From Kiritimatiellia bacterium (GTDB lineage: Bacteria; Verrucomicrobiota; Kiritimatiellia; JAAZAB01), in NCBI GenBank assembly GCA_050944835.1, contig JBMNRV010000008.1:7001-71000 (forward strand): a stretch of DNA of 64,000 nt. Reading direction: 5' to 3'. Positions within the stretch are counted from its first letter, which is position 1, and each line of letters starts with the position of its first letter. Positions 17,804-40,118 of the stretch are shown piece after piece. Below the pieces are notes generated by a model that made no database searches, was not told the DNA's origin, and worked only from the letters and a program-made list of their open reading frames with translations. The translations under genes and the position numbers were made by a program.

Positions 17804-17824
17804 GGGATTGGAGGAAAGCGGCGT

Positions 17825-18805: not shown

Positions 18806-18834
18806 CGGGTTTTTCATGGAAGGAGTGAGAAGCT

Positions 18835-22945: not shown

Positions 22946-23001
22946 CTTCAATATGTTAAGTTTATCCACATCCGGAATGCGGGCGGCATAACGGTCTCTC
23001 G

Positions 23002-23316: not shown

Positions 23317-23317
23317 A

Positions 23318-24073
23318 ATGAAAATCAAAATTGTAAAACGAGGACTGATGTGTTTGGCGGTCTGGGCCGCTGTGGTGGCGGTTGGGCGGCCCGGGCCGGA
23401 TTCGGCTGCGACGCAGGCTGTTCCGGCGCGCGTTTTGATTATTGGTGACTCCATGATGTGTTTGCCGTCGCATGCGCTGGAGCTGGCATTGGCCGGGCGC
23501 ACTGGTGTGACCACACGCGCTTACGCTTCCATCGGCACCGGATTGGCCCGCTTGGATTCGTTTGACTGGATGGAGAAAACCCGCTCATTGCTGCAAGAAT
23601 TCAATCCCGACATGACGTTGGTTTGGTTCGGCACCAACGATCGCCAGCCTATGCAGACTACCAACCGCATTGTCAAACTGGAAGAGCCGGAGTGGGAGGT
23701 GGAATATGCCGGACGCGTGAATGCCTTGATGACCTTGCTTCTTTCCGCCAACCCAACGGCGCGCGTGATGTGGCTGGAATTGCCCGATATGCGCGATGAA
23801 AAAATTCAGGCGGATGTGTTGTTGATCAATCGTTTGGTTCAAGCTGAGGCCGAGAAACACCAGCGGGTGGAATTCTTCGGTACGCGCGGGATATTGGGTT
23901 TTCGCGCCGGCAAGTTTACACCGTATGTCATCGGTTCCAAAGGATTGCCGGTTCAGGTGCGTGACCCGGATGGGATACACCTGAATCGCGCCGGAGCCGA
24001 CCGCTTGGCTGAATATATAGTTAAAGCAATCTATGAAACACCATCGGATGCGGAAACAAGTCAGGATCGTTAA
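23318..24073 (+). CDS. SGNH/GDSL-family hydrolase or acetyltransferase partner of the MBOAT (AlgJ/AlgX/PatB-like)
   Basis: Signal peptide. Block I GDS motif (VLIIGDSMM). Block III GTND-like (WFGTNDR). C-terminal DxxH-type catalytic region (DGIHLNRAGADR). Confidence 0.65.
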   Translation: MKIKIVKRGLMCLAVWAAVVAVGRPGPDSAATQAVPARVLIIGDSMMCLPSHALELALAGRTGVTTRAYASIGTGLARLDSFDWMEKTRSLLQEFNPDMTLVWFGTNDRQPMQTTNRIVKLEEPEWEVEYAGRVNALMTLLLSANPTARVMWLELPDMRDEKIQADVLLINRLVQAEAEKHQRVEFFGTRGILGFRAGKFTPYVIGSKGLPVQVRDPDGIHLNRAGADRLAEYIVKAIYETPSDAETSQDR

Positions 24074-27000
24074 TCGGGGATTGGCCTGGATCTGCTCGAT
24101 CTGGCTTGGAATTACGGCAGCGCCGACGGTATGGGCGCAAGATGCCTTAGAGTTATCCACGAATTTCTCATCGGCACAAGCTGTTGACGATGCCACAACC
24201 GCGGCAGTCGTTGCTCCGACCAATCTGGCGGCTGCCAAGCCCCTTGAAGTTGACCAAACAGTGCGCGCCCTGATGTATGAGGCCATGCTCAATGTGCAGG
24301 ATAAGCAATATGAAATAGCCATTCCCAAACTGGAGTCGGTGATTAAAGATGACCCGACTTTACTGGAAGCATGGTCAACACTGGGATGGGCATACTGGGC
24401 TTTGGATCGAAAACAAGATGCGGCAGAGCTCTGGCAGCGCCTGTTGAATATCGCCCCTAACGAACCGATGGGCTATAACCTGATGGCCCAGGTTGCTGTG
24501 TATGATGGCGATTTGACGCGCGCCGAAGAGCTTTTTGAGAAAAGCCTCACGTTAAATCCCGACCAATACGAAATGCGTATCTCATTGGCGCGCGTCCTGC
24601 TCTGGAATGGGAAAACCGAGCAGGCCGCCAAGGATTTGCGCCGGTTGCTGCAGGAGGATCGCGACCGGTTGGACGTGGAAATAGATTTGGCTTGGGCGAT
24701 GTATGCCAATGAGGAGTACGAGGATGTGCTGGAAGTCTGGAACCATATCAATGATGTGATTCCAGACCAGCCCGGTTATATGATGGCGCGCGCACAAGTC
24801 CTGTTGCTGATCGGCTCATTGACGGAGGCGGAAGCCGAAGCGCGCCGTATTCTGGAGATTGACCCTGGCAACCGGGATGCTTTCAACCTTTTGGCCAACC
24901 TGGCCATGCGTGCGCGCCGTCCTGAAGAAGCGATTGATGCTTTGCGCATAGTGTATGATATGGCGAAAACGGATGCCGTTCGGGCTGCGGTGGCGCTGCA
25001 AATCGCTTCCTACATGAAATCCGTGTATGATACCGATAAGACTGTTTTCACACTGTCGCAATGCTTGGATGCCGCTCATGATGCATATAAGTTGGACGAG
25101 GAAAATATTTCCTGCAAACTGTTTTATGGCGAGCTTCTGACTTCTGCCCGCCACTTCGATCGCGCTGAAGATGTTTTCCAATCGGTTATCAAAGAAAACA
25201 ATCCCTTCAACCTGCGCGCGCACATGGGGTTGGTGCACATCCTGTTGGCGAGCATGCAGCTTGATGAGGCGGAGAAGAAAATAAACGAAACCTTTCGCTT
25301 ATTTAATGTCGCTAATCCCTATCGTCACCTGTTATGGGCTCGGTTGCATTTTGCACGCGGCAATATTCCAGAGGCTATGGATGCCCTGGACCGCCTGGAG
25401 CGTGAAGGGGCTGCGGGCGCGGTCTTTACCCTGCTGTATCACGGGATCTCGCCCAGCGAATGGAGCGATGTGCCGTCGGTGCGCCAGTTCCGTGAGCACT
25501 TGATGGTGCTTCGGCGCGCTGGCTTTAAGTTTATTACACCATCGCAATTCAATGATTACTTTGCAAAACATGACAAGCCGCCGGCGGTGGAGGAGAAACG
25601 GTCGTTGCTTAGTCGCGCTCTGCAGGGGGTGCGTGCTTCTTGGAGCGGCCGACGGGTAGAGCAGGCGCAGCGTCTGTCAGATTATACTCCGGATATGACG
25701 GTGTGTGTGACGATGGACGATGCACTCCGCAATTCCTTGCGCTACGGCAATGTGGTGGCGGAAGAATTACAGGTGCCGATAACCATGTTTTTACCAGTCG
25801 GCAACATTTTGAAGCACGACACCTACACGGCTTCATTCAAGGAAATCCGTGACTATAATGCCTCCGGTTTATGGGAGATGCAAAGTCATCTCATGCAGGC
25901 AAGTTATCTCGCGATGACCAACCAGAACGGGCGTGAGGTCAACCCATTGCCGAATCTCGTCTGGTTGCCGGAAAAAAACCGTCAGGAGTCATTGCGCGAA
26001 TACCATGCCCGGCTGCGATATGAGTTTCGCGATTCGCGGCGGATTCTGGCGCGTGAGCTGGGGTTGGGAGAGTCGGAAATCAATGCTGTGGCATATCCCA
26101 TAGGTGACATCGGCCAGGAAACCACCTGCAATATTGATTTCTTCAATGTGCCGGAAGTGATTCTGAACGAAGCCGAGATCACCTACGCTCTGGGATTTAT
26201 CCAAGACGAATTCGGTTATTCCATGCCTTCCGACAACCCCATGCTTTACAAGCGTTATGAGCCCAAACGTTTTACTACCGGGCGTGAGGTGTATCGCGCG
26301 GCCATGCGCAACCATCCGGTATTCGCTGCGCGCCGCATGCGGGCTGAAATCGCGGCTCTGAGCGGTGAGCTGCATTTGGCCCAAGAAATGGTGCGCTTGT
26401 TGAAGCGCGATGGGTATCCCGAGGAAGATTTAGAGGAAATCAACACCATGGTTCATAAACATGTTGCCCGCCTGATGCATGTGCCGGAAACCGCCCCGGA
26501 TGATATTTCTATCAAAAAGGAAGTGTTGTTTGAGCCGCAAAAACCATTCTTGGCGGTCGAAGGCGATTTTACTAAGGCGAATGTAATGATCGAATCGTGG
26601 CATGGCGGCGCCGCCGCCGGGCTTAATCTGAATCCACGCTTGAGCCTGAACGTACGCGCCGGCATCGGCGGCATTAAGCAAACTGTGTTCTCCAACACAG
26701 TGGTTGAAGTTGAACAAACCAGCCGCTCTTCGTCTCGTTCCGATGTCACCATCATAACCGATGGGGAGACGATGCATCAGACTGAATACAGAACCACGGT
26801 TTCCACAGTGATGCTGCAATCCAACCGGGTTGATGAATATAAATACAAGGCCGACGAGCAGATGGTCGGCGCCGCTCTGAACTACATTCATACCCATGGC
26901 GCATACACCATGCTGGACCTGCGTTATCGCTCTTTCACCGGCGATGAATTGGATGAGGATGCCGGTGTCCTGGTCGGTTCCTTAGAACATCAATGGCGGC

Positions 27001-27614
27001 CGGTGCCGGCATTTGACACTTCTGTGCGTTACCAGCATGATCTTGTGCCGTCGGCGCGCAAGTTGCTGGAATACAATGGCTTTGCCCTGCGTGCCATCTG
27101 GCGGGTTAAGGATTGGTGGCACGCATCCACGTTTGGCGCGTTCTCCGTCTTTGATGACGATAATTCCCATTTGCATGCGAATGTCGAAAACTTGTGGCGG
27201 ATGTCAACCCGACACAATGTCTGGCTGGGTTTGCATGACTCGGTTGATACGGTGGATCGCGACAGCGATTTGTATTGGACGCCTTACTGGGATCAACGGC
27301 ATTATCTGGTGCTCCGGATCAGCCAGAGTTACCCGAATTATACTGCTGCGGCAAGGTTCCACTTGGGCTTGCAAAAAGAAAAGGCGCGTCAGGAGGACTT
27401 GGATGCATACAATACCGCCAAAGCCGCCGCCGAGGGAAAAGGTTGGTACCCAGGCAGCAATCCGCAGCAGGGTTGGAACTCATTATTGGGATTAGGGGTG
27501 ACGCTATCACGTCGCTGGCAAAGCGGCTGGGAGTTCAGTGGAGAATTTGTCGTCAATGCCATCCGCGACTATACCGAGCATACAATCAGCGGTCGCTTAA
27601 TGTATCGTTTTTAA
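24033..27614 (+). CDS. Exopolysaccharide export/modification protein. It has N-terminal TPR repeats, a central CE4 (NodB/PgaB-like) polysaccharide deacetylase-like domain, and a C-terminal outer-membrane beta-barrel (PgaA/BcsC/PelB-like porin).
   Basis: 1193 aa with signal peptide. Many TPR-like helices (AWSTLGWAYWALDRKQDAAELWQRLLNIAPNEP... and following). Central CE4-like motifs (VTMDDA ~ TFDDG; AYPIGDIGQ ~ RxPYG). The C-terminal ~450 aa are rich in amphipathic beta strands and end in ...RLMYRF (terminal aromatic OMP signature). Confidence 0.55.
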   Translation: MKHHRMRKQVRIVNRGLAWICSIWLGITAAPTVWAQDALELSTNFSSAQAVDDATTAAVVAPTNLAAAKPLEVDQTVRALMYEAMLNVQDKQYEIAIPKLESVIKDDPTLLEAWSTLGWAYWALDRKQDAAELWQRLLNIAPNEPMGYNLMAQVAVYDGDLTRAEELFEKSLTLNPDQYEMRISLARVLLWNGKTEQAAKDLRRLLQEDRDRLDVEIDLAWAMYANEEYEDVLEVWNHINDVIPDQPGYMMARAQVLLLIGSLTEAEAEARRILEIDPGNRDAFNLLANLAMRARRPEEAIDALRIVYDMAKTDAVRAAVALQIASYMKSVYDTDKTVFTLSQCLDAAHDAYKLDEENISCKLFYGELLTSARHFDRAEDVFQSVIKENNPFNLRAHMGLVHILLASMQLDEAEKKINETFRLFNVANPYRHLLWARLHFARGNIPEAMDALDRLEREGAAGAVFTLLYHGISPSEWSDVPSVRQFREHLMVLRRAGFKFITPSQFNDYFAKHDKPPAVEEKRSLLSRALQGVRASWSGRRVEQAQRLSDYTPDMTVCVTMDDALRNSLRYGNVVAEELQVPITMFLPVGNILKHDTYTASFKEIRDYNASGLWEMQSHLMQASYLAMTNQNGREVNPLPNLVWLPEKNRQESLREYHARLRYEFRDSRRILARELGLGESEINAVAYPIGDIGQETTCNIDFFNVPEVILNEAEITYALGFIQDEFGYSMPSDNPMLYKRYEPKRFTTGREVYRAAMRNHPVFAARRMRAEIAALSGELHLAQEMVRLLKRDGYPEEDLEEINTMVHKHVARLMHVPETAPDDISIKKEVLFEPQKPFLAVEGDFTKANVMIESWHGGAAAGLNLNPRLSLNVRAGIGGIKQTVFSNTVVEVEQTSRSSSRSDVTIITDGETMHQTEYRTTVSTVMLQSNRVDEYKYKADEQMVGAALNYIHTHGAYTMLDLRYRSFTGDELDEDAGVLVGSLEHQWRPVPAFDTSVRYQHDLVPSARKLLEYNGFALRAIWRVKDWWHASTFGAFSVFDDDNSHLHANVENLWRMSTRHNVWLGLHDSVDTVDRDSDLYWTPYWDQRHYLVLRISQSYPNYTAAARFHLGLQKEKARQEDLDAYNTAKAAAEGKGWYPGSNPQQGWNSLLGLGVTLSRRWQSGWEFSGEFVVNAIRDYTEHTISGRLMYRF

Positions 27615-27701: not shown

Positions 27702-30700
27702 CTACTCGAACAGCACGATGGCGTCTTGGGCATTGTCGGATTTGACGTCTGCGGCGGAGTCAGTCGGTGTGAGCAGCGGCATGGTGTGCGCGCGGCGCGG
27801 CCCGGCAAATATGCCGTTGAACGGGCAGAATTCACGGACTTCGACTATGCGCCGATCCTTATCGGTGCGCATAACCATGACGGTCTTGTTTGTGCCCAGC
27901 AAGCTGCGTTCTAGTTGCTCGCACCATTCCGCGCTTGGCATTCGATTGACCAACAAGGTCAACCCGTTCAGGTCTAATCCTTGTATCAATGCGAGCATCT
28001 CTGGTATTTTTAAAGTACGCAACGTGGCGGCGCGCACACATGGCAGGAGGCGGATTTGGTAATAGCGGCAGAGGATGCGTAAGTCGGTGAAGTCTTCATT
28101 CGTTTCACGCCGGAGCGTGCCGTCATCTTCTTGCATGAACCAGGGTGGGGCAATCGCGCTCAAGGTGCGCGTCCATGGTTGCAACATCTGAACATAATCG
28201 TCATCGGCCCATGATTCTGCGCGTGGTTTAAACACCCCGATGCGGACGGGCAACGGGCCGCCGCTGACTTCCCGCAGATGAACTTGCGCTACACCGAATT
28301 GCGGCGACCATGGCGCCAGTCCCCACCAACCCAATCCGATTTCGGGCGGGATCGGCAACGGAGCGCCGAAGGCCGGTTTGTCGTTGATGTAACACGACGC
28401 GCCGCAGCCGCGTAACTCCAGACGCAGGCGCACGTTTCCAGGCGGCTTGTTCCAGGCGCGAGTCTGGTTGGCGACAGTCTCGCCATTGTGCCAGACTTGC
28501 AGATAAAGCTGTCCAGTCTGCTCAAACCCGAATCGAATCATGTTCCCTTCACCGCGGCGGGCGTAGAGCCAGAAAAATCCGCGTGTGTCTTCCAACAGGG
28601 CTTCAATGAAACCGCTATGCATCGTGTCGGAACCGGTCAGTCGCAGCACTGCTTCCGTTTGAGCCGGCGCAGCGGTAAGGAGTGGAATTTCATCATCCTG
28701 GTCGGCGGGATCGCCGTAAATATTCCAGTTGGTTGAAATTTGGCCGACGGTGAATTCTTCACGCACGGGCACAGTACGCGGCAGCATTGCAGCGGCCATT
28801 GCGCGTTGCGTGGCGTTGGACGATTGTCGCGCCACATCATCCAGATAATTTATGAGCGGCCATGATTCCGGATGGCTCAGTAGATTCCAGCGCTCAATAA
28901 CCTGAAGCATTTGGCTTTCCATGGCCGGGTCGGCGGCGATTTTCATGATTTCCATGAGGTTGTTGAAGCGGTCGGCTGGTTTCTGGAGTAAGCGATGCAT
29001 CAGAGCGCGCGCGTCCAGATCGCTCGGGTTTTCCTGTATGAGTCGTTGAATTTTCGCCGCTGCGGCCTGCGGCTGTTTTTGAAACAGCAGGAGCTCCGCC
29101 TGCGCCAGTATGATGTCCGGGTTGTTGGGGAAGAGACGCTCATAGACATCCAGCAGGTTTCCGGCATCGTCGCCGCGCTGTGCTTTGGAATACATCAGGC
29201 GCGCACAGCGTACCACAAGGTCAATTTGTCCGGGGTCTTGTTCCAGACTGGCTTGATAGGCGCCAATGGCCGCCCCGATTTCATTCTGTTGCAGATAGGC
29301 ATCGGCGATCAGAGTCATCGGCTCGGCATTGCGTGGGTCCAGTACAGCCCATTGCCGCCAGATTTTAACTGCGTTGTCGAAGTCGCCGCGCTGCAAAGCG
29401 GCGTGGCCCTCTGTGCGCAAGATGTTAGGGCTGGCATCTTGCACCGCGTATGGATCGGCATCGCCGCCGGCCAGCTCATAGAAGGTGATTGGATGCTCAC
29501 TCTGTTCAGGCGTGGCCTTTACTACCGCGATCAAACGGTTAGCGCCGTTGGTTTGGCTCGATTTCAGGAGCGGTGAGTCTGGCGCCACGGCCACGGTTAA
29601 ATTGCTTATGCCTTGGAAGAGCGATGCCAGCGCGGGCACCTGTTCCCAGATTGGCGGTAGGCGCGCAATGATGGAGAGGTTGTGCTTGTTCAAATCCCGG
29701 CTGAACAACTGCAGCCATGTAGTGATCTGGGAAAGCGGCACGGATTGATCCATCTGACTCAGGTTAAGCAGCACGCCCTGCGCCGATAAGGCGGCCGCGT
29801 TGGCGGCAATTTCGCCGGACATGCCGTCTTTAATGCCATCCAGGTTTTCCAGAAAAATTTCCGGCTGAAACATAAGGCGATGAATTCGGGCGACGGCGCT
29901 GTAAAATTCGGCGTTCCAGCCGAATTGTTCGGCATGTCCACCGGCGAAAACCCGCATCCACGGCGGCGAAAAGTGCGTGTAGCGGAAGGCGTTGCGGCTG
30001 ATCCAGTATGCCATGTCGGCGTCGCGGTGGTCGGTCGGTGTAAATGTGATTAACGCCGGTTCGGCGGGCATAAGGTCCAGCGCGGTGATTTCCACGCTGG
30101 CATATCCACGCCGCGGATGCCAAAGGCTGCATCCTATCATACCGGGCCGGATTTCGCCGCGGGTGGAAATAATTTCCTTAAAAATAGGGTGGCCACCAGC
30201 CATGGCGAAAAACAAGCGATCGCGCAAGTAAATATCCAATTGCGCTTCACCGTCCGGTGTGGTGGTGTAACGTCCGGCGCTTAAAGTGAAAGGTTCCATA
30301 CCAGTGTGTTTCTGGCGGAGCCAGGCTTCGCCTTCCGGCGTCAGCACAAGATACAGGTAAGATTCGCCGTCGGGCGAGGCCCGCAAAAAGATGCCGAACT
30401 GTCCAGATTTGATCCGCGCCTGTAAGCGCAGGTGAAAAGCATTGTAAAGGTCGCTGCCGTTCAGCCAGACTTTGGCGCCGGTTGCATCCGGCTGGGCTTG
30501 CAGGATAGCGGAGCGCCCGGTGAGTTTGAATTCGCCCCAGTCCGGCAGCCATGCGAGCGGGGTGTTCATAATTTTCGGGCTGGTATATCCTTTCCGTTTA
30601 GGCCAGGCGTGTTCCAAGCGCTGCATCAGATCATCCGCTGTCCAATCCGATTGCACTAGCAATCGGTTCAGGCGGCGCGGATCAGTATGTCGGGTGTTCA

Positions 30701-31607
30701 GGGCGGTATTGCCATGGATAAAACCCAGATCATAGAAGTGGGAGACCAGGTGCATATTCAGGCGCCGGGTAAATAGCGCGCGTTCATCGTATTGCCCAAA
30801 ATCTCCGTATGGGAAAGCGTATGCGGTAGGAGGCTGGCCGAGTTCATCGGAGATGATTTTACGGCAGTATTCGTGGTCATCAATCAGGCGTTGGCGGAAG
30901 GCATCCGGTGTTTCATAACGCATTTCTCGCGGAAACCAGCGTGGAGTAGTCATGTAATTTCGTTTTTCGCCGGTGTTGTTGGCCAGAACTGTTTCAAATC
31001 CATGATGGCTCTGGGCGCCGGCTTCCCATGCGCCGCTGCGCACCATAGTGCGCACATACGGCCAACGCAACGCTGAAGGGTCTTCATCCATGATCGGTTT
31101 GGTCCAGAGAAACATGACGGCCTGCCACCCGGCGCGTTGCAGGACACGCCGCGCGTCGAAATACGAGGATTTGCGGGAGTGGTCAAAAGTCATCAGGATG
31201 GCTTTGCGCGGCAGCGGGCGGTTTTCACGGTAAAACGCTGTGATGTCGCGTAGAGTAATCGGATGGTATCCGGCCGCCCGTAATGCCTCAAATTGCGCGC
31301 GGAAACGTTCAGGGGTGAGTTCGCCGGGATTAGCGGAAATGCCTTGGTAAGCCAACGCCACAAATTCATAGGCATCGCGTGGGCCGACATCCGTCGGTCG
31401 GAACATAAAGACGCGCGTGACAGCGTAACGGATCGGTGTCCACCAAGCCGCTATCAGGCAGATGATAAGCATGAAGTAAAGCCAAGCTTGCCGATAGCTG
31501 GTCTTCAATGCCTGAACACGCGCCGGCACAATTGGCAGCTTGTCGGCGAGTCTTGACGGACGAGTTGCATCCGTCTGTTTGCCGTGCTGTTCGTTTTCAA
31601 ATTTCAT
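27702..31607 (-). CDS. Inner-membrane-anchored multidomain EPS-modifying protein. It has an N-terminal TM, a CE4 deacetylase-like domain (variant TFDH motif), TPR repeats, and a conserved ~330-aa C-terminal module of unknown function shared with the 33085..35415 product.
   Basis: 1301 aa. N-terminal TM (AWLYFMLIICLIAAWWTPI). CE4-like (ILMTFDHSRKSSY..., AFPYGDFGQ). TPR segment (FDNAVKIWRQWAVLDPRNAEP...AYLQQNEIGAAIGAYQASLEQDPGQ). C-terminal block GFIEALLEDTRGFFWLYARRGEGNMIRFGF...GLGWWGLAPW...GGPLPVRIG is almost colinear with the paralog. ATGA overlap with the upstream GT2 gene suggests translational coupling. Confidence 0.5.
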   Translation of the reverse strand: MKFENEQHGKQTDATRPSRLADKLPIVPARVQALKTSYRQAWLYFMLIICLIAAWWTPIRYAVTRVFMFRPTDVGPRDAYEFVALAYQGISANPGELTPERFRAQFEALRAAGYHPITLRDITAFYRENRPLPRKAILMTFDHSRKSSYFDARRVLQRAGWQAVMFLWTKPIMDEDPSALRWPYVRTMVRSGAWEAGAQSHHGFETVLANNTGEKRNYMTTPRWFPREMRYETPDAFRQRLIDDHEYCRKIISDELGQPPTAYAFPYGDFGQYDERALFTRRLNMHLVSHFYDLGFIHGNTALNTRHTDPRRLNRLLVQSDWTADDLMQRLEHAWPKRKGYTSPKIMNTPLAWLPDWGEFKLTGRSAILQAQPDATGAKVWLNGSDLYNAFHLRLQARIKSGQFGIFLRASPDGESYLYLVLTPEGEAWLRQKHTGMEPFTLSAGRYTTTPDGEAQLDIYLRDRLFFAMAGGHPIFKEIISTRGEIRPGMIGCSLWHPRRGYASVEITALDLMPAEPALITFTPTDHRDADMAYWISRNAFRYTHFSPPWMRVFAGGHAEQFGWNAEFYSAVARIHRLMFQPEIFLENLDGIKDGMSGEIAANAAALSAQGVLLNLSQMDQSVPLSQITTWLQLFSRDLNKHNLSIIARLPPIWEQVPALASLFQGISNLTVAVAPDSPLLKSSQTNGANRLIAVVKATPEQSEHPITFYELAGGDADPYAVQDASPNILRTEGHAALQRGDFDNAVKIWRQWAVLDPRNAEPMTLIADAYLQQNEIGAAIGAYQASLEQDPGQIDLVVRCARLMYSKAQRGDDAGNLLDVYERLFPNNPDIILAQAELLLFQKQPQAAAAKIQRLIQENPSDLDARALMHRLLQKPADRFNNLMEIMKIAADPAMESQMLQVIERWNLLSHPESWPLINYLDDVARQSSNATQRAMAAAMLPRTVPVREEFTVGQISTNWNIYGDPADQDDEIPLLTAAPAQTEAVLRLTGSDTMHSGFIEALLEDTRGFFWLYARRGEGNMIRFGFEQTGQLYLQVWHNGETVANQTRAWNKPPGNVRLRLELRGCGASCYINDKPAFGAPLPIPPEIGLGWWGLAPWSPQFGVAQVHLREVSGGPLPVRIGVFKPRAESWADDDYVQMLQPWTRTLSAIAPPWFMQEDDGTLRRETNEDFTDLRILCRYYQIRLLPCVRAATLRTLKIPEMLALIQGLDLNGLTLLVNRMPSAEWCEQLERSLLGTNKTVMVMRTDKDRRIVEVREFCPFNGIFAGPRRAHTMPLLTPTDSAADVKSDNAQDAIVLFE

Positions 31608-33088
31608 CCGCTACCCCGTGTTCCCCATTTGCCGTGTGAAAGGGTGGCTAAGGCATAATAAATTTGCCAACTGAAAAACACGACATATGTGAATGTAAAC
31701 ACAAATCCCGCCCACCAATGTTTGCGGCCGGTTTTTTGCAGGTGGAAGATTGACCAGATCAACGTCATGGCCAATACGCCGACAGCGTATGAAAGTGTAA
31801 TACCGCCAGTTAGAAGCGGCGCTAAAACGAGCGCCTGCAGGATGATGAACGGCTCAATAACCGGCAAAAACATCATGGCGTACCAAGACAGCGCGGGCAC
31901 AGGATGTTTGCGCCAGATGAATGTGGTTGCGCCGATCATCCCGTGCAGGGAGGAGCGCATCCAGCGCGCCTGTTGCCGGATATATTGCCGCCAGTTTTCC
32001 GGCACAATGGTTGTCGCCAACGCGTCGTCATCATACAGAATGCGGTAGTCGCGCAATACCAGGTTGGTCAGACTGCGATCGTCACCGTAGCGTCCTTCCA
32101 CCCCGAAGACTTTTTCGTTCATCCATTCTTCCATGACATGTAGGATGCAAACCCGACGGTAAGCGGAGAAACAGCCCGGCAGGCAACTGACCATTCCGAA
32201 GATGCTTTCCGATGCCTTCATGATCTTATACGAAAAGAAATAGCGCACATCCTGCATCTTGGTCAACACATTGACGCGGGAGTTTTCCACGTCCGTGTGG
32301 CCGGCAATTCCCCCCACCATCGGATCAATGAATCCCTGTACCAGCTTGCTGACGGCGCCTGGCATCAGGAATGTGTCGGAATCAACGAAAACAATTATAT
32401 CACTGCGCGCCAACAGGGCAGCGCAGGACATCCCATAGGAAAGGCCGCGGTTGAATTCAAAATCCACCACTATCAGACTTCGGAACCGTGCTTGAGCGCG
32501 CATCATTTCCGCCAGAGTATTGTCAGTGGAGCCGTCGTTGACGACGATGACTTCGAGCAACTCATGCGGGTAGCCTTCGGCATACACCCGCGCGATTGAG
32601 CGCGCAATAGCTTTATCTTCATTCATACAGGGTATAGCCACAGTTGTCGGCGGCCTAAATCCTACATCGGGCGGCGGTGCGTAAAAAGCTGCGAAAATGA
32701 AGCGTGAAATAATAAAAATACCGACCACTAAACTGTAAATATTGACGACGGGGGCATACCAGTAATGCTCCATATTGATTACTTGAAAATACACTGCCGT
32801 GGTCAGCAACAAGATGCCTAAGGTGCCGAGCAGTATTATCCCCCAGATCGGCAGTTTGTTATAAAGAAATTTACGGCGCTCTTCCGCGTCTATTTCATGC
32901 GGCAATTCGGCGGGGGGTGGCGGGGTAAACGATGAAAGCGTCAGCGCGCCGCGGCAAAATGGACAAACAGACGGCGTCGGCGCTTCAATGACACTGATTG
33001 AAAGGCGGCAGGCAGGGCATCGGGCCTTAGTGCCGCCGGTTGCGGAAGACGCGGAATTATTGGTAGATGGATGTGTAGAAGAAGTCAT
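31604..33088 (-). CDS. Processive family-2 glycosyltransferase (HasA/NodC/chitin-synthase-like N-acetylglucosaminyl-type synthase) with N-terminal C4 zinc-ribbon and multiple TM helices
   Basis: GT2 catalytic motifs: VIVVNDGSTDNT (DxD-region), FVDSDT, GDDRSLTNLVL (compare HasA GDDRCLTNYA), and QQARW (the QxxRW motif of processive beta-glycan synthases). N-terminal CPACR...CPFCRG zinc ribbon. About 6 TM segments flank the catalytic domain. Confidence 0.85.
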   Translation of the reverse strand: MTSSTHPSTNNSASSATGGTKARCPACRLSISVIEAPTPSVCPFCRGALTLSSFTPPPPAELPHEIDAEERRKFLYNKLPIWGIILLGTLGILLLTTAVYFQVINMEHYWYAPVVNIYSLVVGIFIISRFIFAAFYAPPPDVGFRPPTTVAIPCMNEDKAIARSIARVYAEGYPHELLEVIVVNDGSTDNTLAEMMRAQARFRSLIVVDFEFNRGLSYGMSCAALLARSDIIVFVDSDTFLMPGAVSKLVQGFIDPMVGGIAGHTDVENSRVNVLTKMQDVRYFFSYKIMKASESIFGMVSCLPGCFSAYRRVCILHVMEEWMNEKVFGVEGRYGDDRSLTNLVLRDYRILYDDDALATTIVPENWRQYIRQQARWMRSSLHGMIGATTFIWRKHPVPALSWYAMMFLPVIEPFIILQALVLAPLLTGGITLSYAVGVLAMTLIWSIFHLQKTGRKHWWAGFVFTFTYVVFFSWQIYYALATLSHGKWGTRGSG

Positions 33089-35415
33089 AAAAGCAATATG
33101 GCGTTTGGCGCCTCATGGTCAATCGGCGCAAATTCTTCCGCCATGGCTGGCAGCTCAGGCGGGAGGATTACAGGCAGTATATGTGTGCGCCGCGGCGCGG
33201 GAAACAAGCCGACATGCGCACAGATTTCACGCACCTGCGCGGACGGTTTATTTTCATCCTGCATGACGATCATCAGCGTCAGCGTAGTGTGCAACAGCGC
33301 TTGTTCAGCGGCGGCCAGCCATTCCGGGTTCGGCATCTTGTGCACCAGGATTGTCAAGCCATCGGTGCGGTCGGTGCGCGCCAGTTCGATCAACTCATCA
33401 AAATTCAAGCGATTCGGATGCTCAGTTGCCACCGATGGCAGCAGGCGTACACGATAATAACGGCACAGGAGACGACAATCCATGTCGTCGTCTGTTTTGA
33501 TTGTGGCGATGGCGCCATTCGTGTTTTGGCGATACCAGGCTGGGGCCAGTGCGCTGAGCTCGTGCATACGACTTTTCAGTTGCCGGATTTTTTCCGCCGA
33601 CAATTTACCCTGACAATCCTCATCCTGGGAGGTGGGTGGGATTCCGATACGCACCGGGAGCGGACCTCCTTTCAATCCACGGATGACAGCTCCCGCGCCG
33701 CCGGGCTGCTGACTCCATGGCGCAAATCCCCACCAGCCTAAGCCCATGTCATTCGGTATCGAGAGGGGTGAGCTAAAGGCAGGCGCGTCATCCACGAAAG
33801 CGACGGCGCCATCGCCGCGCAGGTCCAGACGCATTCGCACCGCGCCTTGTCGGCACTGCCGGACACGGTTGTAATTTACGAGCAATTGGCCGTTAAGCCA
33901 GTTTTGCAGGTAAATCCGGTTGTTTTCGTCAAATCCGAACCGAATCATATTGCCTGAGCCGCGGCGGGCATACATCCAGAAAAATCCTCGACTGCTTTCA
34001 ACTACGGCCTCGATAAAACCGTTGGGCATGGATTCCGAACGAGTCAGACGCAGGGATACTTCCGATTGTTTGGCTGCGGTGTCCAGGATCAGGCGGCCGT
34101 GTTGGAATAGGTTGCCATCCTTTGACGCCGCCCAGTCTTGCGACATGCGACCGTGCCGAAATTCTTCTATTGCCGGAGTCTGGCGCGGGAGGAAGTCGGT
34201 GAAAAAGCAGCGTTGTTCGGGTGTGGTTGCCCGCTCCGCCTCCTGTGCGATGAAATTCAGCAACATCCATGATTCCGGGTGGCTCAATAGGTCATGTTCA
34301 CGGATATTGGACGCCAAGGCCGACGCCATGCCGGGACGTTCCGCCGTCGCCAACATAGCGCGCAAGTTATCGAAGCGTTCGCGCATGCTGGGCAATAGGT
34401 CATGCAGCAGGGCCAGCGCCTGCATCTTGTCGGCATCGGATTTGTCCATGCCGCCGTCAATCACTTGTTTGGCAAGGGCACGGGCTTCATCGTGTCGGTG
34501 CCGGCGCACAAGCCAAGCAGCCTGAGCGAGCGCCACCATGGAGTTGTTCGGGAAAATCCGGGCGTAAAAATTCAACAGATCGCGTGCCGCTTCAGGTTTT
34601 CCAGCGGCTGTATCCAGCAGGCGCGCCTTGCGCATGGCCAGCTCAATCTGGCCGGGATAAACTTGCAAGCTGCGGCGGTAATATTGCATGGCTTGTTCTA
34701 TATCGTCAGTAAAAAGATAGACGTCGCCGATGAGCGAAAGAGGTTCAAAGTTTTCCGGCTCCAGCTCGTGCCATTGGGTCCAGATTTTAACCGCATTGGT
34801 GAAGTTGCCGGCATTGAAAGCGTTCCATCCTTCTTGACGCAAGGCATGCGCCCGTAGCTCGGATGTCCAGCGCTCTTCGCGGGTGGGCAAGTCGGATAAT
34901 TCATAATACAAAGCCAATTCCATATCATGGGGCAGATCGGCATAATTGCGTTCGGGCGGCGGCAGGAGCGGCGTCATGGAAGCGCTGAGGGTGACGCCGG
35001 TATAGCTTTCGTAGCCGTGAATCAACAGGTGGTAAACACCCTCTGGTGGCTGTTCGATTTTGATGTCCTCAGTATTGCCCAGTACGAACGGCCGATAGTC
35101 ATATTCGCGCAGGGACGGTTGGTTGGTTTGGGATAGATACAAATCGGCGTCGCCGTCGCCGCCATCCATTGTGATTATCAGGTTTACTTGTCCGGTCTGC
35201 ACGGCAATTGTGAAATACAGAAGTGAGCCCTTCTCGCCGGACAGGTTGGAGATCGTCTGTCCGGCTTGCAGAACGTGCGGTGCGGCAATGTTTTCAATTT
35301 GCGTGGGCGGCGCCGCGACGGCGTCCGGATCGGCGCCTTCCGCCAGGCGTATGATCGGTCCGATGCAGAGCATCAAGATGGCCGTGCGTATAAATATGGA
35401 TTTATTTTTGTGCAT
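33085..35415 (-). CDS. Secreted TPR-repeat protein with N-terminal PPC/pre-peptidase-C-terminal-like beta-sandwich. Paralog of the 27702..31607 C-terminal two-thirds (shared TPR block plus conserved ~330-aa C-terminal module).
   Basis: Signal peptide (MHKNKSIFIRTAILMLCIGPIIRLAEG). PPC-like segment (LYFTIAVQTGQVNLIITMDGGDGDADLYL...). TPR (FTNAVKIWTQWHELEPENFEP...). C-terminal block GFIEAVVESSRGFFWMYARRGSGNMIRFGF...GLGWWGFAPW...GGPLPVRIG. ATGA overlap with the GT2 start. Confidence 0.5.
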   Translation of the reverse strand: MHKNKSIFIRTAILMLCIGPIIRLAEGADPDAVAAPPTQIENIAAPHVLQAGQTISNLSGEKGSLLYFTIAVQTGQVNLIITMDGGDGDADLYLSQTNQPSLREYDYRPFVLGNTEDIKIEQPPEGVYHLLIHGYESYTGVTLSASMTPLLPPPERNYADLPHDMELALYYELSDLPTREERWTSELRAHALRQEGWNAFNAGNFTNAVKIWTQWHELEPENFEPLSLIGDVYLFTDDIEQAMQYYRRSLQVYPGQIELAMRKARLLDTAAGKPEAARDLLNFYARIFPNNSMVALAQAAWLVRRHRHDEARALAKQVIDGGMDKSDADKMQALALLHDLLPSMRERFDNLRAMLATAERPGMASALASNIREHDLLSHPESWMLLNFIAQEAERATTPEQRCFFTDFLPRQTPAIEEFRHGRMSQDWAASKDGNLFQHGRLILDTAAKQSEVSLRLTRSESMPNGFIEAVVESSRGFFWMYARRGSGNMIRFGFDENNRIYLQNWLNGQLLVNYNRVRQCRQGAVRMRLDLRGDGAVAFVDDAPAFSSPLSIPNDMGLGWWGFAPWSQQPGGAGAVIRGLKGGPLPVRIGIPPTSQDEDCQGKLSAEKIRQLKSRMHELSALAPAWYRQNTNGAIATIKTDDDMDCRLLCRYYRVRLLPSVATEHPNRLNFDELIELARTDRTDGLTILVHKMPNPEWLAAAEQALLHTTLTLMIVMQDENKPSAQVREICAHVGLFPAPRRTHILPVILPPELPAMAEEFAPIDHEAPNAILLL

Positions 35416-37867: not shown

Positions 37868-38203
37868 TTATTCCCAAACATAAGGGTTATCCTTCTTTGG
37901 GGCGCTGTCAGTGTCAAGATTCGTTCCGGTCGGAATGATTCTGCGGAATATGGGCAACTGCGTTTGCGCCGGCGCTGACTCCGGTGCGGGCACAGGCACG
38001 GGCTCCGGTGCGGGTGCAGGCGGCGGTGGATTATCAATCGGCACTACGAATCTTTCGGCGCGGGAAGACGTTTCCGGCTTTTTTTCAGATATCGCTCCCT
38101 CTAGATGTTTTCGCCGGACGCGGGAATTCCAAATGGTGGCGACGGCAAAAACCAAGCTGAGAATGGAGGCAATAATGGTTGTTGCGGTCAGGCTGTCGTT
38201 CAT
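37868..38203 (-). CDS. Small proline-rich single-pass membrane protein (111 aa), first gene upstream of the EPS operon
   Basis: N-terminal TM (TTIIASILSLVFAVATIW) then PPPPAPAPEPVPVPAPESAPAQ low-complexity linker and a short C-terminal tail. Shares the divergent AT-rich promoter region with the response-regulator gene. Confidence 0.35.
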   Translation of the reverse strand: MNDSLTATTIIASILSLVFAVATIWNSRVRRKHLEGAISEKKPETSSRAERFVVPIDNPPPPAPAPEPVPVPAPESAPAQTQLPIFRRIIPTGTNLDTDSAPKKDNPYVWE

Positions 38204-38440: not shown

Positions 38441-38812
38441 ATGGCTAAAATTTTAATTATAGACGACGATCAGATGATTCTGGGATACTTCAAACGCATC
38501 CAAGATAAGCTGAAAAAAGAAATCGTCACTGCATCTGACGGGATGGAAGGTTGTCAGATGGCGCAGGATCCCGATGTTAAACTCATAGTTATGGATTTCT
38601 GTATTCCCGGTGGTTTAGAAAAGACATCTTTATTGCAAAAATTGAAAAGCCTACGTCCGGAATTGCCGATAATTGTCATTTCTGGCTTTTCCTCAAAGGA
38701 GATTGTTGAGGAGTGCCACAAATTGGGCGCCAGCGAGTTTTTGTCTAAGCCCTTCGAGTTGTCGTTTTTGCCGACGATTATCCGGCGCTTGTTGGATACC
38801 ACACCGGAGTGA
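38441..38812 (+). CDS. Stand-alone response-regulator receiver domain protein (CheY-like, no output domain)
   Basis: 123 aa. Acidic pocket DDD (ILIIDDDQ), phospho-acceptor Asp in LIVMDF, conserved T/S and Lys (FLSKPF). Confidence 0.85.
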   Translation: MAKILIIDDDQMILGYFKRIQDKLKKEIVTASDGMEGCQMAQDPDVKLIVMDFCIPGGLEKTSLLQKLKSLRPELPIIVISGFSSKEIVEECHKLGASEFLSKPFELSFLPTIIRRLLDTTPE

Positions 38813-38879: not shown

Positions 38880-40118
38880 ATGATTACTAAGACATTATTT
38901 GGAATTGATTTCTTTGATGCGCATTACGGCGGCGTTTACCGTGGCCGCCCAGTATTGCTTTCAGGGCGCAAGGGGCTGGGTAAAACAACTATCGCGATGC
39001 AGTTTCTGTGCAAAGGATTACAACAAGACGAAACCTGTCTTATGCTCAATACTTTGCCTAACTATAATCTTGATATTTACGCCGATATGTTAGGTTTCTC
39101 GCTGGCGAACCATGTAAATGACGGACGCTTGATTTTGCTGGAAAGCAGTAATTTTAGCGGTGTTTGCGGAACAAAGATGCTGCCGCCGGAATGTTTTGAG
39201 CAACTGCGTCAAATTATAGATACCCACATGATTCAACGGATGGTGATTGACACGATTGTGCCGCTTGTGGCAGTTAATCCGCCAGAGCGCATAAATGAAC
39301 ACATTTATTCTTTTATGCGTTCTTTTGACCGCTTGGGTGTTACCACCTTGATGACGCTCCCTAAGCCGGTGTCGCCTATGGCTGTCCGGTTGAAAAATGC
39401 TTTGGAAGCCGCCCTGCCGATTTCAATTTTACTGAATTCAACTGATGATCCATCAACCTATACATTTCAGGTGGTGAAGTATATGGGGGCGCCGAAGTTG
39501 GCGGCGCCGGTGAATTATAAATTCAAGACGGGCGCAGGGGTTGTCAGTTGCGCCTCCCTATATGCCGAATCAGTTCAGCCGCCGGCGCAGGCGGTGTCAG
39601 GGCCTCCACCGGCGGAAACTAAATCGTCAGTGTCAGCGCCATCAGAGTCTCCACCGGCAGAAACTAAACCGGCAGTGCCCGCACAGACATGGTTTCCTTT
39701 GGTGCAGGCGGCATCAAGGCTGGCATCAGCGGATGCGCCACGAGCAGAGGCGGCATCACGGCCGACACCAGCGGAGGCGCCACGAGCGGAGGCGGCATCA
39801 AGGCTGACACCAGCGGAGGCGCCACGAGCAGAGGCGGCATCTAGGCCGACACCGGCAGGGTCTTCACCGACGGCGCTTTCATCGGCACCGGTTACATCGG
39901 GATTAAGAATGTCCTCTGTATCTGTGCCAACACTGCTTTATGATGATTCTGGCAATGGGCGCAATGGGCGCAATGGACGCAATAAAGTTATTGAAGAGAC
40001 AAAACCTATGCCGAAAGATGCTGAAAAACCGCCAGCGCTGCCGCCCAGCAATGGGAAATTACGGCTTTCGAACTACACACCCAAAAAAATGCCGCTTGAT
40101 AGGAAGGATGAAGGATGA
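38880..40118 (+). CDS. KaiC/RAD55-like RecA-fold ATPase (single RecA-like domain, ~240 aa) with ~170-aa low-complexity Ala/Pro/Arg/Glu-rich C-terminal tail containing tandem repeats
   Basis: Walker A GRKGLGKTT within a KaiC-like N-terminus (FGIDFFDAHYGGVYRGRPVLLSGRKGLGKTTIAMQFL). Tail has 14-aa repeats AASR(L/P)TPAEAPRAE x3.5 and GNGRNGRNGRN. Confidence 0.6.
   Translation: MITKTLFGIDFFDAHYGGVYRGRPVLLSGRKGLGKTTIAMQFLCKGLQQDETCLMLNTLPNYNLDIYADMLGFSLANHVNDGRLILLESSNFSGVCGTKMLPPECFEQLRQIIDTHMIQRMVIDTIVPLVAVNPPERINEHIYSFMRSFDRLGVTTLMTLPKPVSPMAVRLKNALEAALPISILLNSTDDPSTYTFQVVKYMGAPKLAAPVNYKFKTGAGVVSCASLYAESVQPPAQAVSGPPPAETKSSVSAPSESPPAETKPAVPAQTWFPLVQAASRLASADAPRAEAASRPTPAEAPRAEAASRLTPAEAPRAEAASRPTPAGSSPTALSSAPVTSGLRMSSVSVPTLLYDDSGNGRNGRNGRNKVIEETKPMPKDAEKPPALPPSNGKLRLSNYTPKKMPLDRKDEG
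39708..39860 (+). repeat. In-frame 42-nt tandem repeat (x~3.5) inside the KaiC-like gene tail; a second 9-nt microrepeat (GGCAATGGG-like x3.5) at 39951..39984
   Basis: Units gcggcatca(a/c)ggc(t/c)g(g/a)ca(t/c)cagcgga(t/g)gcgccacgagc(a/g)gag are directly visible at 39708, 39750 and 39792, with a partial copy at 39834. Confidence 0.8.

Follow-up and report, generated by a model that had tools for sequence, protein, structure and literature searches.

We propose that, in a clade of exopolysaccharide synthases from the PVC bacteria, an N-terminal zinc ribbon has replaced the PilZ domain of related enzymes and that an adjacent module of a receiver, a KaiC-like ATPase, and an ExeA-like ATPase controls the synthase through this ribbon, a reading to which we give about even weight. 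The synthase gene lies in a 64,000-nucleotide stretch of a Kiritimatiellia bacterium contig (JBMNRV010000008.1; the window, table 1), and it is best explained, with moderate confidence, as encoding the catalytic and translocating subunit of a PVC-specific synthase-dependent exopolysaccharide system. We extend the proposal only tentatively to the phylum scale, at which c-di-GMP/PilZ gating would have been replaced in the PVC clade and the receiver and both ATPases would act directly via the ribbon. Synthase-dependent secretion of GlcNAc polymers is itself a known type of system; what appears to be new is the variant with the ribbon, for which the mechanism is proposed from sequence comparison.

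Table 1. Features of the synthase locus and its surroundings (positions in the window).
Feature	Position	Strand	Remarks
MBOAT	21500..22945	+	PF03062; DltB-like NCBIfam match below cutoff
94-aa ORF	23032..23316	+	Within putative O-acetylation module 21500..24073
DUF459/SGNH PatB-like protein	23318..24073	+	PF04311; PatB-like NCBIfam match below cutoff
TPR protein, 1193 aa, weak CE4-like segment	24033..27614	+	TPR families; weak PgaA and PgaB similarity
Membrane-anchored periplasmic protein, 1301 aa: PgaB-like CE4 deacetylase domain, TPR, C-terminal module	27702..31607	-	
Processive membrane GT2 synthase, hyaluronan/chitin/NodC class, N-terminal zinc ribbon	31604..33088	-	494 aa
Two-helix membrane hairpin of synthase, residues 81-134, between ribbon and catalytic domain	32687..32848	-	AF2
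Cys4 zinc ribbon of synthase, residues 19-54 (C24, C27, C42, C45)	32927..33034	-	Conservation, AF2
PPC-TPR exported protein	33085..35415	-	Pfam PPC and TPR; gene callers place start at 35373
GHL10-like putative glycoside hydrolase, 798 aa	35402..37798	-	PF02638, 27.6 bits, slightly below cutoff
Small single-TM protein, 111 aa, first gene of synthase operon	37868..38203	-	
Stand-alone response-regulator receiver, 123 aa, divergent from synthase operon	38441..38812	+	PF00072, 69.8 bits
Single-domain KaiC-like RecA-type ATPase, residues 1-231, disordered P/A-rich repeat tail	38880..40118	+	
ExeA/GspA-like AAA ATPase, 280 aa, related to XrtA/PEP-CTERM-associated ATPase	40278..41120	+	PF13401

The open reading frame that the initial annotation had called an exopolysaccharide synthase proved genuine, and its product is a processive glycosyltransferase of family 2 (GT2) of the hyaluronan/chitin/NodC class. 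Its GT-A domain matched PF00535 (93 bits, cutoff 23.3), PF03142 (90 bits, cutoff 27), and PF13641 (81 bits). The D, DxD, (G)DD(R), QxxRW, and C-terminal WGT(R/K) motifs were all found (DGS185, DSD236, GDDR335, QQARW372, and WGTR488) and were invariant in an alignment of 35 homologues. The closest PDB sequence match was Chlorella virus HAS (7sp7, E 1.7e-22), whose WGTRG lines up with that of the synthase; in the AF2 model (pTM 0.85) a transmembrane channel is fused to the glycosyltransferase domain, and HAS structures ranked top in a Foldseek search (E about 1e-20, TM 0.62-0.67). Thus, the best matches in both sequence and fold are class I HAS (Chlorella virus HAS and vertebrate HAS1), NodC, and the chitin synthases, which share the motifs and in which one polypeptide polymerises and translocates; however, identity to HAS is only ~20%, below what would name the enzyme a hyaluronan synthase, and these enzymes have no zinc ribbon, no deacetylase/TPR export partner, and no ATPase module. 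The equivalog models for NodC (TIGR04242, 147.8 bits vs a cutoff of 550) and PgaC/IcaA (TIGR03937, 111.7 vs 422.3) were not reached either, and the WGTR motif places the synthase in the HAS/CHS/NodC branch, away from Pga/Ica. The label "hyaluronan synthase" that the protein carries at JGI is an automatic name only.

A zinc ribbon before the first transmembrane helix had been noted previously, and we found its two motifs, CPAC at residues 24-27 and CPFC at residues 42-45, in a CxxC-x14-CPxC layout upstream of the membrane hairpin, with the family consensus G-x-[RK]-x-[RH]-C-x-x-C-x-[LI]-S-[VI]-x-V-x3-P-x-P-x-V-C-P-[FY]-C. Because non-coding frames of the window, which is G+C-rich, contain three such CxxC..CxxC strings as well, the motif alone is weak evidence, and the ribbon was judged real from its invariance across the family. 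Both CxxC pairs were kept in 109 of 120 homologues in a fixed 18-residue register, at identities down to about 52-53%; the other 11 comprised 10 N-terminally truncated ORF calls and one sequence with a C-to-R change at the first Cys. The four Cys together with V33, P39, and P43 were invariant in an alignment of 35 sequences, and CxxC-x14-CxxC was retained in 79/79 loci from GTDB species-representative genomes, all of which belong to Kiritimatiellia, Lentisphaerae, or Verrucomicrobiota. Absence of the Cys4 motif from orthologues, which the initial annotation had named as evidence against its reading, was therefore not seen. In the AF2 model the ribbon forms a three-stranded mini-domain (strands 19-24, 29-33, and 50-54; pLDDT about 96) with its two knuckles on beta-hairpins at conserved spacing, followed by helices 81-111 and 113-134 and then the GT-A domain. 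These data refute the view that the CxxC pairs arose by chance in a G+C-rich N-terminus or reflect a mis-called start, to which we attach practically no probability. As the number of helices between them is even (two), the ribbon would lie on the cytoplasmic side with the GT-A domain, and its Cys4 site is predicted to bind metal.

Matches of the ribbon to curated families were all sub-threshold and to generic Zn-ribbon families, the best being Zn_ribbon_19 (14/27 members, best E 0.001), with HypA, DUF7501, and rubredoxin-like families also appearing; a PDB profile search with the ribbon returned nothing below E 0.1. The ribbon is thus too small and too generic for a function to be assigned by sequence, which counts against the proposed switch role. 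Alternatively, the four Cys could form a sensor of redox state or of metal, either as a rubredoxin-like Fe centre or as a Zn-thiolate switch that responds to oxidation; polymer synthesis would then follow oxygen or oxidative stress in bacteria that are mostly anaerobes. CP[FY]C, the second knuckle, does resemble the CPxC knuckle of rubredoxin, an extra fifth Cys precedes the first knuckle in 55/108 homologues, and the weak Pfam matches include the rubredoxin-like and HypA metal sites; moreover, dimerisation of the zinc domain of plant CesA has been reported to depend on oxidation (Kurek 2002, as cited in PMC12077881). However, every one of these family matches is sub-threshold, the Gly found after rubredoxin knuckles is absent here, and a sensor of this kind would leave the co-occurring receiver/ATPase module (see below) unexplained; we consider it very unlikely.

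The initial annotation had started from the premise that synthase-dependent exopolysaccharide systems are normally gated by c-di-GMP. This applies to PgaCD, which is gated post-translationally by c-di-GMP, but is over-general, as such gating is not known for hyaluronan synthases, NodC, chitin synthases, or staphylococcal Ica. Its observation that the locus lacks a c-di-GMP receptor held at the sensitivity of Pfam, a custom PilZ HMM, and a GGDEF probe. Pfam scans of every locus protein revealed no PilZ, GGDEF, EAL, GIL, or T2SSE_N domain and matched no GGDEF I-site, PelD-like, or MshEN domain; neither the synthase nor any of its partners gave a PilZ match (PF07238) with RxxxR and D/NxSxxG. When the window and the 79 related loci were translated in six frames, an HMM made from the PilZ domains of the sister enzymes described below found no match at E<=1. 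The GGDEF consensus probe, validated by its matches in outgroup loci, gave 8 matches in 0.97 Mb of PilZ-type loci vs 0 in 1.22 Mb of ribbon loci. A cryptic PilZ or I-site domain was also looked for in the synthase C-terminus and in the paralogous TPR proteins, and none (PilZ, GGDEF) was found; the synthase terminates 3 residues past WGTR, which leaves no room for a C-terminal PilZ.

The locus may still hold a non-canonical site of the PgaC/PgaD type, since PgaCD has no recognisable domain for the c-di-GMP that it binds, and in FleQ the ligand is bound by the AAA+ domain. With these precedents, gating by c-di-GMP could persist in a form invisible to domain searches, for example at a PgaC/PgaD-type interface, at an RxxD site, at an ATPase's Walker A region, as is the case in FleQ, or on the receiver, and the small single-TM protein encoded first in the synthase operon would be a candidate partner. 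However, this protein, which matched no Pfam family, was conserved only in 10 close relatives; PilZ and GGDEF were absent at any threshold from the ribbon loci, whereas the PilZ-type loci have both; and losing a dedicated PilZ while retaining its ligand would be less parsimonious. We therefore regard the persistence of c-di-GMP gating as improbable.

The nearest relatives outside the ribbon clade, at 30-45% identity, are PilZ-fused HAS/NodC-like GT2 enzymes from metagenomes (e.g., P0127 in locus L086). In 62 of the 87 out-clade loci a PilZ occupied the same N-terminal position, directly at the GT2 N-terminus; PF07238 scored above cutoff at the N-terminus of P0127, P0128, P0131, P0132, P0135, and P0140, and PilZ was found in 19 of 34 long N-terminal extensions of sister enzymes. 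R6, R10, S39, and G42 of the RxxxR and DxSxxG motifs were invariant in 12 of them, so that the motifs are intact. These sisters and the ribbon synthase have the same arrangement of TM hairpin and GT-A domain, and in both types genes for a CE4 deacetylase and TPR proteins follow downstream; this common gene core indicates that the ribbon and PilZ types are homologous systems. In contrast, the sisters have neither the zinc ribbon nor the receiver/KaiC-like/AAA operon, and GGDEF genes sometimes lie nearby. A neighbour-joining (NJ) tree built from 114 catalytic cores showed the ribbon clade to be monophyletic, and its first five successive sister groups held 19/20 PilZ-bearing sequences. Because this tree was midpoint-rooted, a swap from PilZ to ribbon is only the parsimonious direction. 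The ribbon takes the position that the c-di-GMP-binding PilZ holds in its nearest relatives.

The divergent operon reported beside the synthase genes, with a receiver and a KaiC-like ATPase, was confirmed in both members. The receiver has the acidic pocket (D8-D10), the phospho-acceptor D52, S81, and K103; among 50 orthologues, D52 and K103 were conserved in at least 90% and S81 in at least 60%. The KaiC-like ATPase is a member of PF06745 (75.7 bits) and its top Foldseek match was the KaiC CI domain (TM 0.8), with G29, G34, E88, and D124 invariant and K35 conserved in at least 90%. It is not a circadian KaiC, which has two tandem RecA-like domains that assemble into a double hexamer, with CII autophosphorylation sites, as it has one domain only and scored 52/408 and 42/546 bits vs cutoff with the KaiC equivalogs. 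Its weak ArlH and FlaH matches and CI-like fold recall archaeal ArlH/FlaH, KaiC-family proteins that modulate a machine. The AAA ATPase (AAA22) has conserved Walker A and B motifs and aligned end-to-end with the XrtA/PEP-CTERM-associated ATPase family (TIGR03015), at 111 bits against a cutoff of 324.5; all scores to this family and to ArlH/FlaH were below the family cutoffs, and no XrtA or PEP-CTERM genes were among the conserved neighbours of the ribbon loci. Catalytic and phospho-acceptor residues were thus conserved in all three proteins.

Among the 79 ribbon and 87 out-clade loci, this module was linked exclusively to the ribbon form. The KaiC-like gene was present in 51/79 ribbon vs 0/87 PilZ-type loci, which overstates the independent support because the association is a single phylogenetic event in one clade; AAA22 was present in 47/79 ribbon loci and the receiver in 49/79, and profile HMMs likewise found neither the KaiC-like nor the AAA22 gene in the out-clade loci. 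The KaiC-like subfamily has 80 detectable members, and the few with a source label are from Verrucomicrobia or Kiritimatiellae. Where at least 4 kb upstream was available, at least two of the three genes were found in 40 of 50 ribbon loci, and the linkage survived rearrangement of other genes; in the remaining 10 the module was not nearby, so it is either non-obligatory or encoded elsewhere. No DNA-binding domain was detected in the three proteins by Pfam/profile scans, which favours post-translational action. No histidine kinase was conserved in the locus, which counts against the proposed switch.

Thus, we proposed that in the ribbon clade c-di-GMP gating may have been swapped for a protein-based switch: the ribbon would serve as a docking or regulatory surface for the receiver, which is phosphorylatable at D52, and for both the KaiC-like and the ExeA-like ATPase, and these three would control synthase activity or assembly through it. 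Physical contact between ribbon and module is inferred here. BcsA and Alg44 offer a parallel in that a cytoplasmic accessory domain on or beside the synthase decides GT2 activity, and the ribbon is proposed for this slot; their PilZ domains bind c-di-GMP, whereas the proposed input here is the receiver/ATPase module. The initial annotation had suggested that regulation might go through phosphorylation or the ribbon rather than c-di-GMP, and the evolutionary pattern, with PilZ at the same position in relatives and the module found only with the ribbon form, lends this reading added support.

A possible but rather unlikely alternative is that the ribbon is a structural or oligomerisation element and not a signal input, as proposed for the RING-like N-terminus of plant CesA, while the module assembles or energises the export apparatus (as ExeA does for secretins) or has an unrelated neighbouring function. 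Plant CesA, likewise a processive membrane GT2, also begins with a Cys-rich Zn module in the cytosol, before the first TM helices; this RING-like domain forms dimers and trimers in vitro, and no regulatory role has been established for it (PMC12077881), which counts against the proposed switch. It differs in being a two-zinc region of ~50 residues followed by a long helical stalk, whereas the ribbon is a single Cys4 unit of ~35 residues with no sequence relationship to it. The full-length alignment of the AAA protein with an ExeA-like ATPase family of exopolysaccharide loci and the 10/50 ribbon loci without a nearby module are also consistent with a structural role. However, the ribbon sits exactly where the sister enzymes hold a regulatory PilZ, the module occurs in the ribbon clade alone and remains beside the synthase through rearrangements, and the AAA protein lacks any membrane or peptidoglycan-binding segment. 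Our results, read as control through the ribbon, suggest an undescribed c-di-GMP-independent way of turning on slime production. We found no description of this ribbon/module mechanism in the searchable literature, and no link there between KaiC-family or ExeA-like ATPases and a synthase-dependent exopolysaccharide system. If true, it would be a regulatory principle new to synthase-dependent exopolysaccharide secretion and would give this KaiC-like subfamily its first assigned function.

The neighbouring genes bear on the polymer. As in PgaABCD/IcaADBC, the GT2 synthase has a CE4 de-N-acetylase and an export component with TPR as partners, but the PgaC, PgaB (TIGR03938, 104 bits vs 321.9 for the 1301-aa protein), and PgaA (24-32 bits vs 366.7) models all scored far below their cutoffs, and no PgaD/IcaD family match was found among the small ORFs of the locus by Pfam/profile searches. 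Although the protein is not a PgaB/IcaB by these models, its CE4 domain is present (PF01522, residues 131-271); the gene lay directly downstream of GT2 in 78/79 related loci, and here 4 nt are shared between its start and the GT2 stop. The PPC-TPR protein is a paralogue of its residues 730-1281 (41% identity over 561 aa), and the gene was found between GT2 and the regulator operon only in nearer relatives. With a signal peptide or a membrane anchor, the TPR proteins are periplasmic; the 1193-aa TPR protein, present in 53/79 loci, is a candidate periplasmic scaffold or outer-membrane export component. The GHL10-like gene was present in 28/79 loci, and the MBOAT and DUF459/SGNH genes of the putative O-acetylation module were conserved in 31 and 26 of 79, respectively. 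The polymer very probably contains GlcNAc and is very probably partly N-deacetylated by the CE4 partner, and it is probably O-acetylated by the MBOAT/SGNH pair.

The locus couples a synthase of the HAS/NodC class with TPR proteins for export, a CE4 deacetylase and two putative acetylation proteins. The synthase ORF was confirmed as real, and its product is a family-2 glycosyltransferase (GT2; Pfam PF00535, 93 bits; Chitin_synth_2, 90 bits; Glyco_tranf_2_3, 81 bits) in which the motifs D, DxD, GDDR, QxxRW and the C-terminal WGTR are all present and, in an alignment of homologues, all invariant. The closest solved structures were the Chlorella-virus and Xenopus hyaluronan synthases (sequence E ~1e-22; Foldseek TM 0.62-0.67), and chitin synthases and BcsA ranked next. 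Classification of the system as PNAG (Pga/Ica) or NodC/HAS was considered and rejected, every equivalog model remaining far under its cutoff (148 bits vs 550 for NodC, and 112 bits vs 422 for PgaC). Because these curated models were not reached, we place the synthase in the HAS/chitin-synthase/NodC branch and leave its product unnamed. Database labels assign the protein to a Kiritimatiellia MAG. The system resembles Pga/Ica in the synthase-dependent secretion of a probable GlcNAc polymer and has a HAS/chitin-synthase-type catalytic subunit; it fell outside the Pga, Ica, NodC and HAS equivalogs, and likewise outside every c-di-GMP receptor family tested.

The synthase operon is translationally coupled, with 4-nt ATGA overlaps at both ends of the GT2 gene. 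Two of its products are paralogous, residues 730-1281 of the CE4-TPR protein aligning with residues 192-752 of the PPC-TPR protein at 41% identity over 561 aa, and the TPR and C-terminal module common to both gave no Pfam match beyond the TPRs. The PPC-TPR copy is confined to nearer relatives, and conservation of the small TM protein, which recalls the synthase partners PgaD and IcaD, does not extend beyond 10 close relatives. Among the convergent genes, the large TPR protein could be an outer-membrane export component, and the MBOAT, 94-aa ORF and SGNH trio suggests, by analogy with AlgI/J/X or PatA/B, that O-acetylation of the polymer is plausible. The locus is flanked by Opp ABC-transporter genes (left) and a ZIP transporter (right), which were taken as its boundaries. 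The Opp/Dpp operon, of which two permeases and two ATPases were confirmed in a scan covering the ORFs other than the 839-aa ORF at 13801..16320, is not conserved alongside the EPS locus. On the short contigs encoding locus proteins, Pfam identified nothing beyond housekeeping genes on the right side and an acyl-CoA dehydrogenase on the left.

Features of the EPS locus and its surroundings in the window
Feature	Coordinates	Strand	Length (aa)	Remarks
Opp/Dpp-type ABC peptide transporter operon	13801..21429	+		directly adjoins EPS locus on left
MBOAT (DltB-like), 94-aa ORF, DUF459/SGNH (PatB-like) protein	21500..24073	+		conserved trio, convergent with synthase operon
TPR protein	24033..27614	+	1193	convergent with synthase operon; weak PgaB-like CE4 segment, residues 600-693
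CE4-TPR protein	27702..31607	-	1301	membrane-anchored; PgaB-like CE4 deacetylase domain, TPRs, C-terminal module
GT2 synthase	31604..33088	-	494	N-terminal zinc ribbon
Fifth-Cys position of GT2	33020..33025	-		Ala in window protein (ARCPAC), residues 22-23
PPC-TPR exported protein	33085..35415	-	776	synthase operon
GHL10-like hydrolase				synthase operon
Small protein, one N-terminal TM helix	37868..38203	-	111	operon head; no family match
Stand-alone receiver	38441..38812	+	123	divergent from synthase operon; D52, S81, K103 intact
KaiC-like protein	38880..40118	+	412	one RecA-type domain, Walker A GRKGLGKTT, disordered P/A-rich tail
KaiC-like tail repeats	39706..39853 and 39952..39983	+		42-bp tandem (3.5 copies) and 9-bp (3.6 copies)
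ExeA-like AAA ATPase	40278..41120	+	280	third divergent gene; end-to-end alignment to XrtA/PEP-CTERM-associated ATPase model, sub-cutoff

As noted in the initial annotation, the synthase carries an N-terminal zinc-ribbon motif, the knuckles of which, CPAC and CPFC, occupy residues 24-27 and 42-45. By itself, a CxxC..CxxC string is weak evidence, because three such strings occur in non-coding frames of the G+C-rich window, and it is conservation that decides. Both knuckles stood at a fixed 18-residue register in 109 of the 120 best homologues (down to 53% identity), and of the other 11, ten were N-terminally truncated ORF calls and one had Arg in place of its first Cys (C->R). A scan of 185,579 species-representative genomes returned 151 loci, from which the best 80 matches, representing 79 distinct loci, were kept, and CxxC-x14-CxxC was present in 79/79 of these. 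In a 35-sequence alignment, C24, C27, C42, C45, V33, P39 and P43 were invariant, within the consensus G-x-[RK]-x-[RH]-C-x-x-C-x-[LI]-S-[VI]-x-V-x3-P-x-P-x-V-C-P-[FY]-C. The four Cys are thus conserved in orthologues, and the probability that the CxxC pairs arose by chance is practically negligible. Assignment of the ribbon to a curated family was attempted and rejected, neither Pfam scans of 27 ribbon fragments nor a profile search of the PDB giving more than sub-threshold generic matches. A fifth Cys, two residues ahead of the first knuckle (CRCxxC), is present in 55 of 108 homologues.

The AlphaFold2 model of the synthase (mean pLDDT 84.7, pTM 0.85) folds residues 19-54 as a three-stranded mini-domain (pLDDT ~96), followed by long helices 81-111 and 113-134 and then by the GT-A domain. 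With two membrane helices lying between it and the cytosolic catalytic domain in this model, the ribbon is predicted to be cytoplasmic as well.

What is understood of the post-translational control of synthase-dependent exopolysaccharides concerns c-di-GMP almost exclusively. Pfam scans, part run here and part precomputed, found no PilZ, GGDEF, EAL, GIL or T2SSE_N domain in any locus protein. A PilZ HMM built from Pfam-confirmed domains of the sister enzymes (the next relatives, with PilZ at the N-terminus) and run on six-frame translations returned nothing at E<=1 in the window and the 79 ribbon loci (best 80 of 151 matches). A GGDEF consensus probe, with its matches in outgroup loci as positive control, had 8 matches in PilZ-type loci, of which some lay no more than 3 kb from the synthase operon, and 0 in 1.22 Mb of ribbon loci. 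At the sensitivity of these searches, the proposal that the locus lacks a c-di-GMP receptor was upheld by all three approaches. The alternative of a cryptic c-di-GMP site, which would leave the usual nucleotide in control, seems quite improbable. Every segment of the synthase is assigned, to the ribbon, the TM hairpin, the GT-A domain or the C-terminal helices, and no space is left for a hidden PilZ; the chain ends 3 residues past WGTR. The large TPR proteins, judged from their sequences, have a signal peptide or N-terminal membrane anchor; they are periplasmic and would be unable to sense a cytoplasmic nucleotide. Two sets of regex matches were discarded: 'PilZ' matches in the window, which had no HMM support and were located either in non-coding frames or within a 1487-aa protein unrelated to the system, and, in one locus (L033), a 'GGDEF' string a short way upstream of the GT2 gene, which was no neighbouring cyclase but a spurious match antisense to an acetate-kinase-like ORF.

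A HMMER search, exhaustive over 1.84 billion cluster representatives, revealed a sharp break between the ribbon clade, a handful of representatives with at least 51% identity, and the next relatives, which have 30-45% identity and longer N-termini. PF07238 was above cutoff at the N-terminus of P0127, P0128, P0131, P0132, P0135 and P0140, the domain was present in 19 of the 34 long N-terminal extensions, and the c-di-GMP-binding residues RxxxR and DxSxxG were invariant in a 12-sequence alignment of these sister domains. After the contigs of P0124, P0128 and P0131 proved too short for context, a metagenome scan provided 80 further PilZ-type loci; in 62 of the 87 out-clade loci the PilZ HMM placed a PilZ domain immediately at the N-terminus of the GT2, and the PilZ-type loci share the gene core of the ribbon loci, in the order PilZ-GT2, CE4 deacetylase, TPR/CE4 protein. 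The invariant Cys4 ribbon stands exactly where homologous synthases have PilZ. In a rough, midpoint-rooted neighbour-joining tree of 114 catalytic cores, the ribbon clade was monophyletic, and the five groups that come first as its successive sisters held 19 of the 20 PilZ-bearing sequences. Parsimony suggests that the ribbon took over from PilZ in an ancestral enzyme that carried PilZ, and we regard this domain replacement itself as likely.

Several PilZ-type loci showed further features. GGDEF-domain ORFs, possibly dedicated cyclases, follow the PilZ-GT2/CE4 genes within ~3-5 kb on the downstream side in L149, L158 and L168, and another locus (L087/L088) has a tandem pair of PilZ-GT2 paralogues. 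In L086 (8750..9823), a GH18 (chitinase-family) gene and an acyltransferase adjoin the GT2-CE4-TPR genes, and the GH18 gene of this one locus points to a polymer that may contain GlcNAc. The out-clade protein P0129 (912 aa) has several zinc-ribbon-like CxxC pairs, then a PilZ-like segment without RxxxR (no Pfam PilZ call at E<=0.01) and then the GT2 core, a hint that a synthase N-terminus of this family may carry Zn ribbons together with PilZ-like modules.

The receiver, KaiC-like and AAA genes form a regulator module with a distinct distribution. Among the best 80 of the 151 matches, labelled loci belonged to Kiritimatiellia, Lentisphaerae/Victivallales, Verrucomicrobiota or 'PVC group', and a cultured carrier was Kiritimatiellaeota bacterium B1221 (locus L012). 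Within the same best 80, the receiver was divergently upstream of GT2 in 49, the KaiC-like gene in 51 and the AAA gene in 47 of the 79 loci. Of the 50 loci with 4 kb or more of upstream sequence, 40 had two or all three of these genes. The module directly adjoins GT2 in most lineages, with GHL10 and PPC-TPR genes intervening in the window's sub-lineage, and its position is fixed while the TPR, SGNH and MBOAT genes switch side and orientation. Searched with profile HMMs for the KaiC-like protein and the AAA protein, the 87 out-clade loci (0.97 Mb) gave no match. The receiver and the two ATPases are genomically tied to the ribbon form only. Together with the PilZ domains of the sister enzymes, this evolutionary pattern argues for a control other than c-di-GMP, as the initial annotation had suggested.

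That annotation had also described the divergent receiver and KaiC-like ATPase correctly, and the AlphaFold2 model of the latter matched the KaiC CI domain (TM ~0.8). The residues conserved in orthologues comprise D52 and K103 of the receiver, G29/G34/K35/E88/D124 of the KaiC-like protein and the Walker motifs of the AAA protein; because these catalytic and phospho-acceptor residues are conserved, all three proteins look active. No DNA-binding domain was found in any of the three. A database-wide search with the KaiC-like domain retrieved 80 proteins only, all with at least 39% identity and the few labelled ones from Verrucomicrobia or Kiritimatiellae, which looks like a dedicated subfamily.

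We propose that the ribbon may be the surface through which the receiver/ATPase module switches or assembles the synthase, and that the action of this protein module at the ribbon would take the place of c-di-GMP; we put forward the ribbon-module coupling tentatively, as not quite an even call. Alternatively, the ribbon might be purely structural or oligomerising and the module act elsewhere. The same role has been discussed for the RING-like region of plant CesA (PMC12077881), which is the nearest analogue for a Zn module at the N-terminus of a processive GT2 and has no sequence kinship with the ribbon; with the module restricted to ribbon loci, we consider this alternative unlikely. A redox or metal sensor built on the same four invariant Cys appears very improbable.

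The literature covered, with most subscription journals outside it, contained no description of a zinc-ribbon GT2 of this type, of the present Kiritimatiellota system, of the PilZ-fused sister enzymes or of a KaiC-like ATPase tied to exopolysaccharide synthesis. The two system types constitute a natural experiment, in which homologous systems differ in one synthase slot, filled by PilZ or the zinc ribbon, and in whether they have the three-gene module. Guts, sediments and anaerobic digesters harbour Kiritimatiellia, Lentisphaerae and Verrucomicrobiota in abundance, and to our knowledge almost nothing is known of the matrix biology of these lineages. If the module gates the synthase via the ribbon, this would explain biofilm-matrix control in these groups and provide a function for an orphan subfamily of KaiC-like ATPases.

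The orthologues of the KaiC-like protein are mostly 264-348 aa long, and one with an identical N-domain has 307 aa vs 412 in the window; the length of the tail is therefore polymorphic. In the locus L018 (6010..16939) of a Verrucomicrobia MAG, a duplicated cassette (CE4-TPR, ribbon GT2, CE4-TPR, ribbon GT2) lies downstream of a single receiver/KaiC-like/AAA operon.
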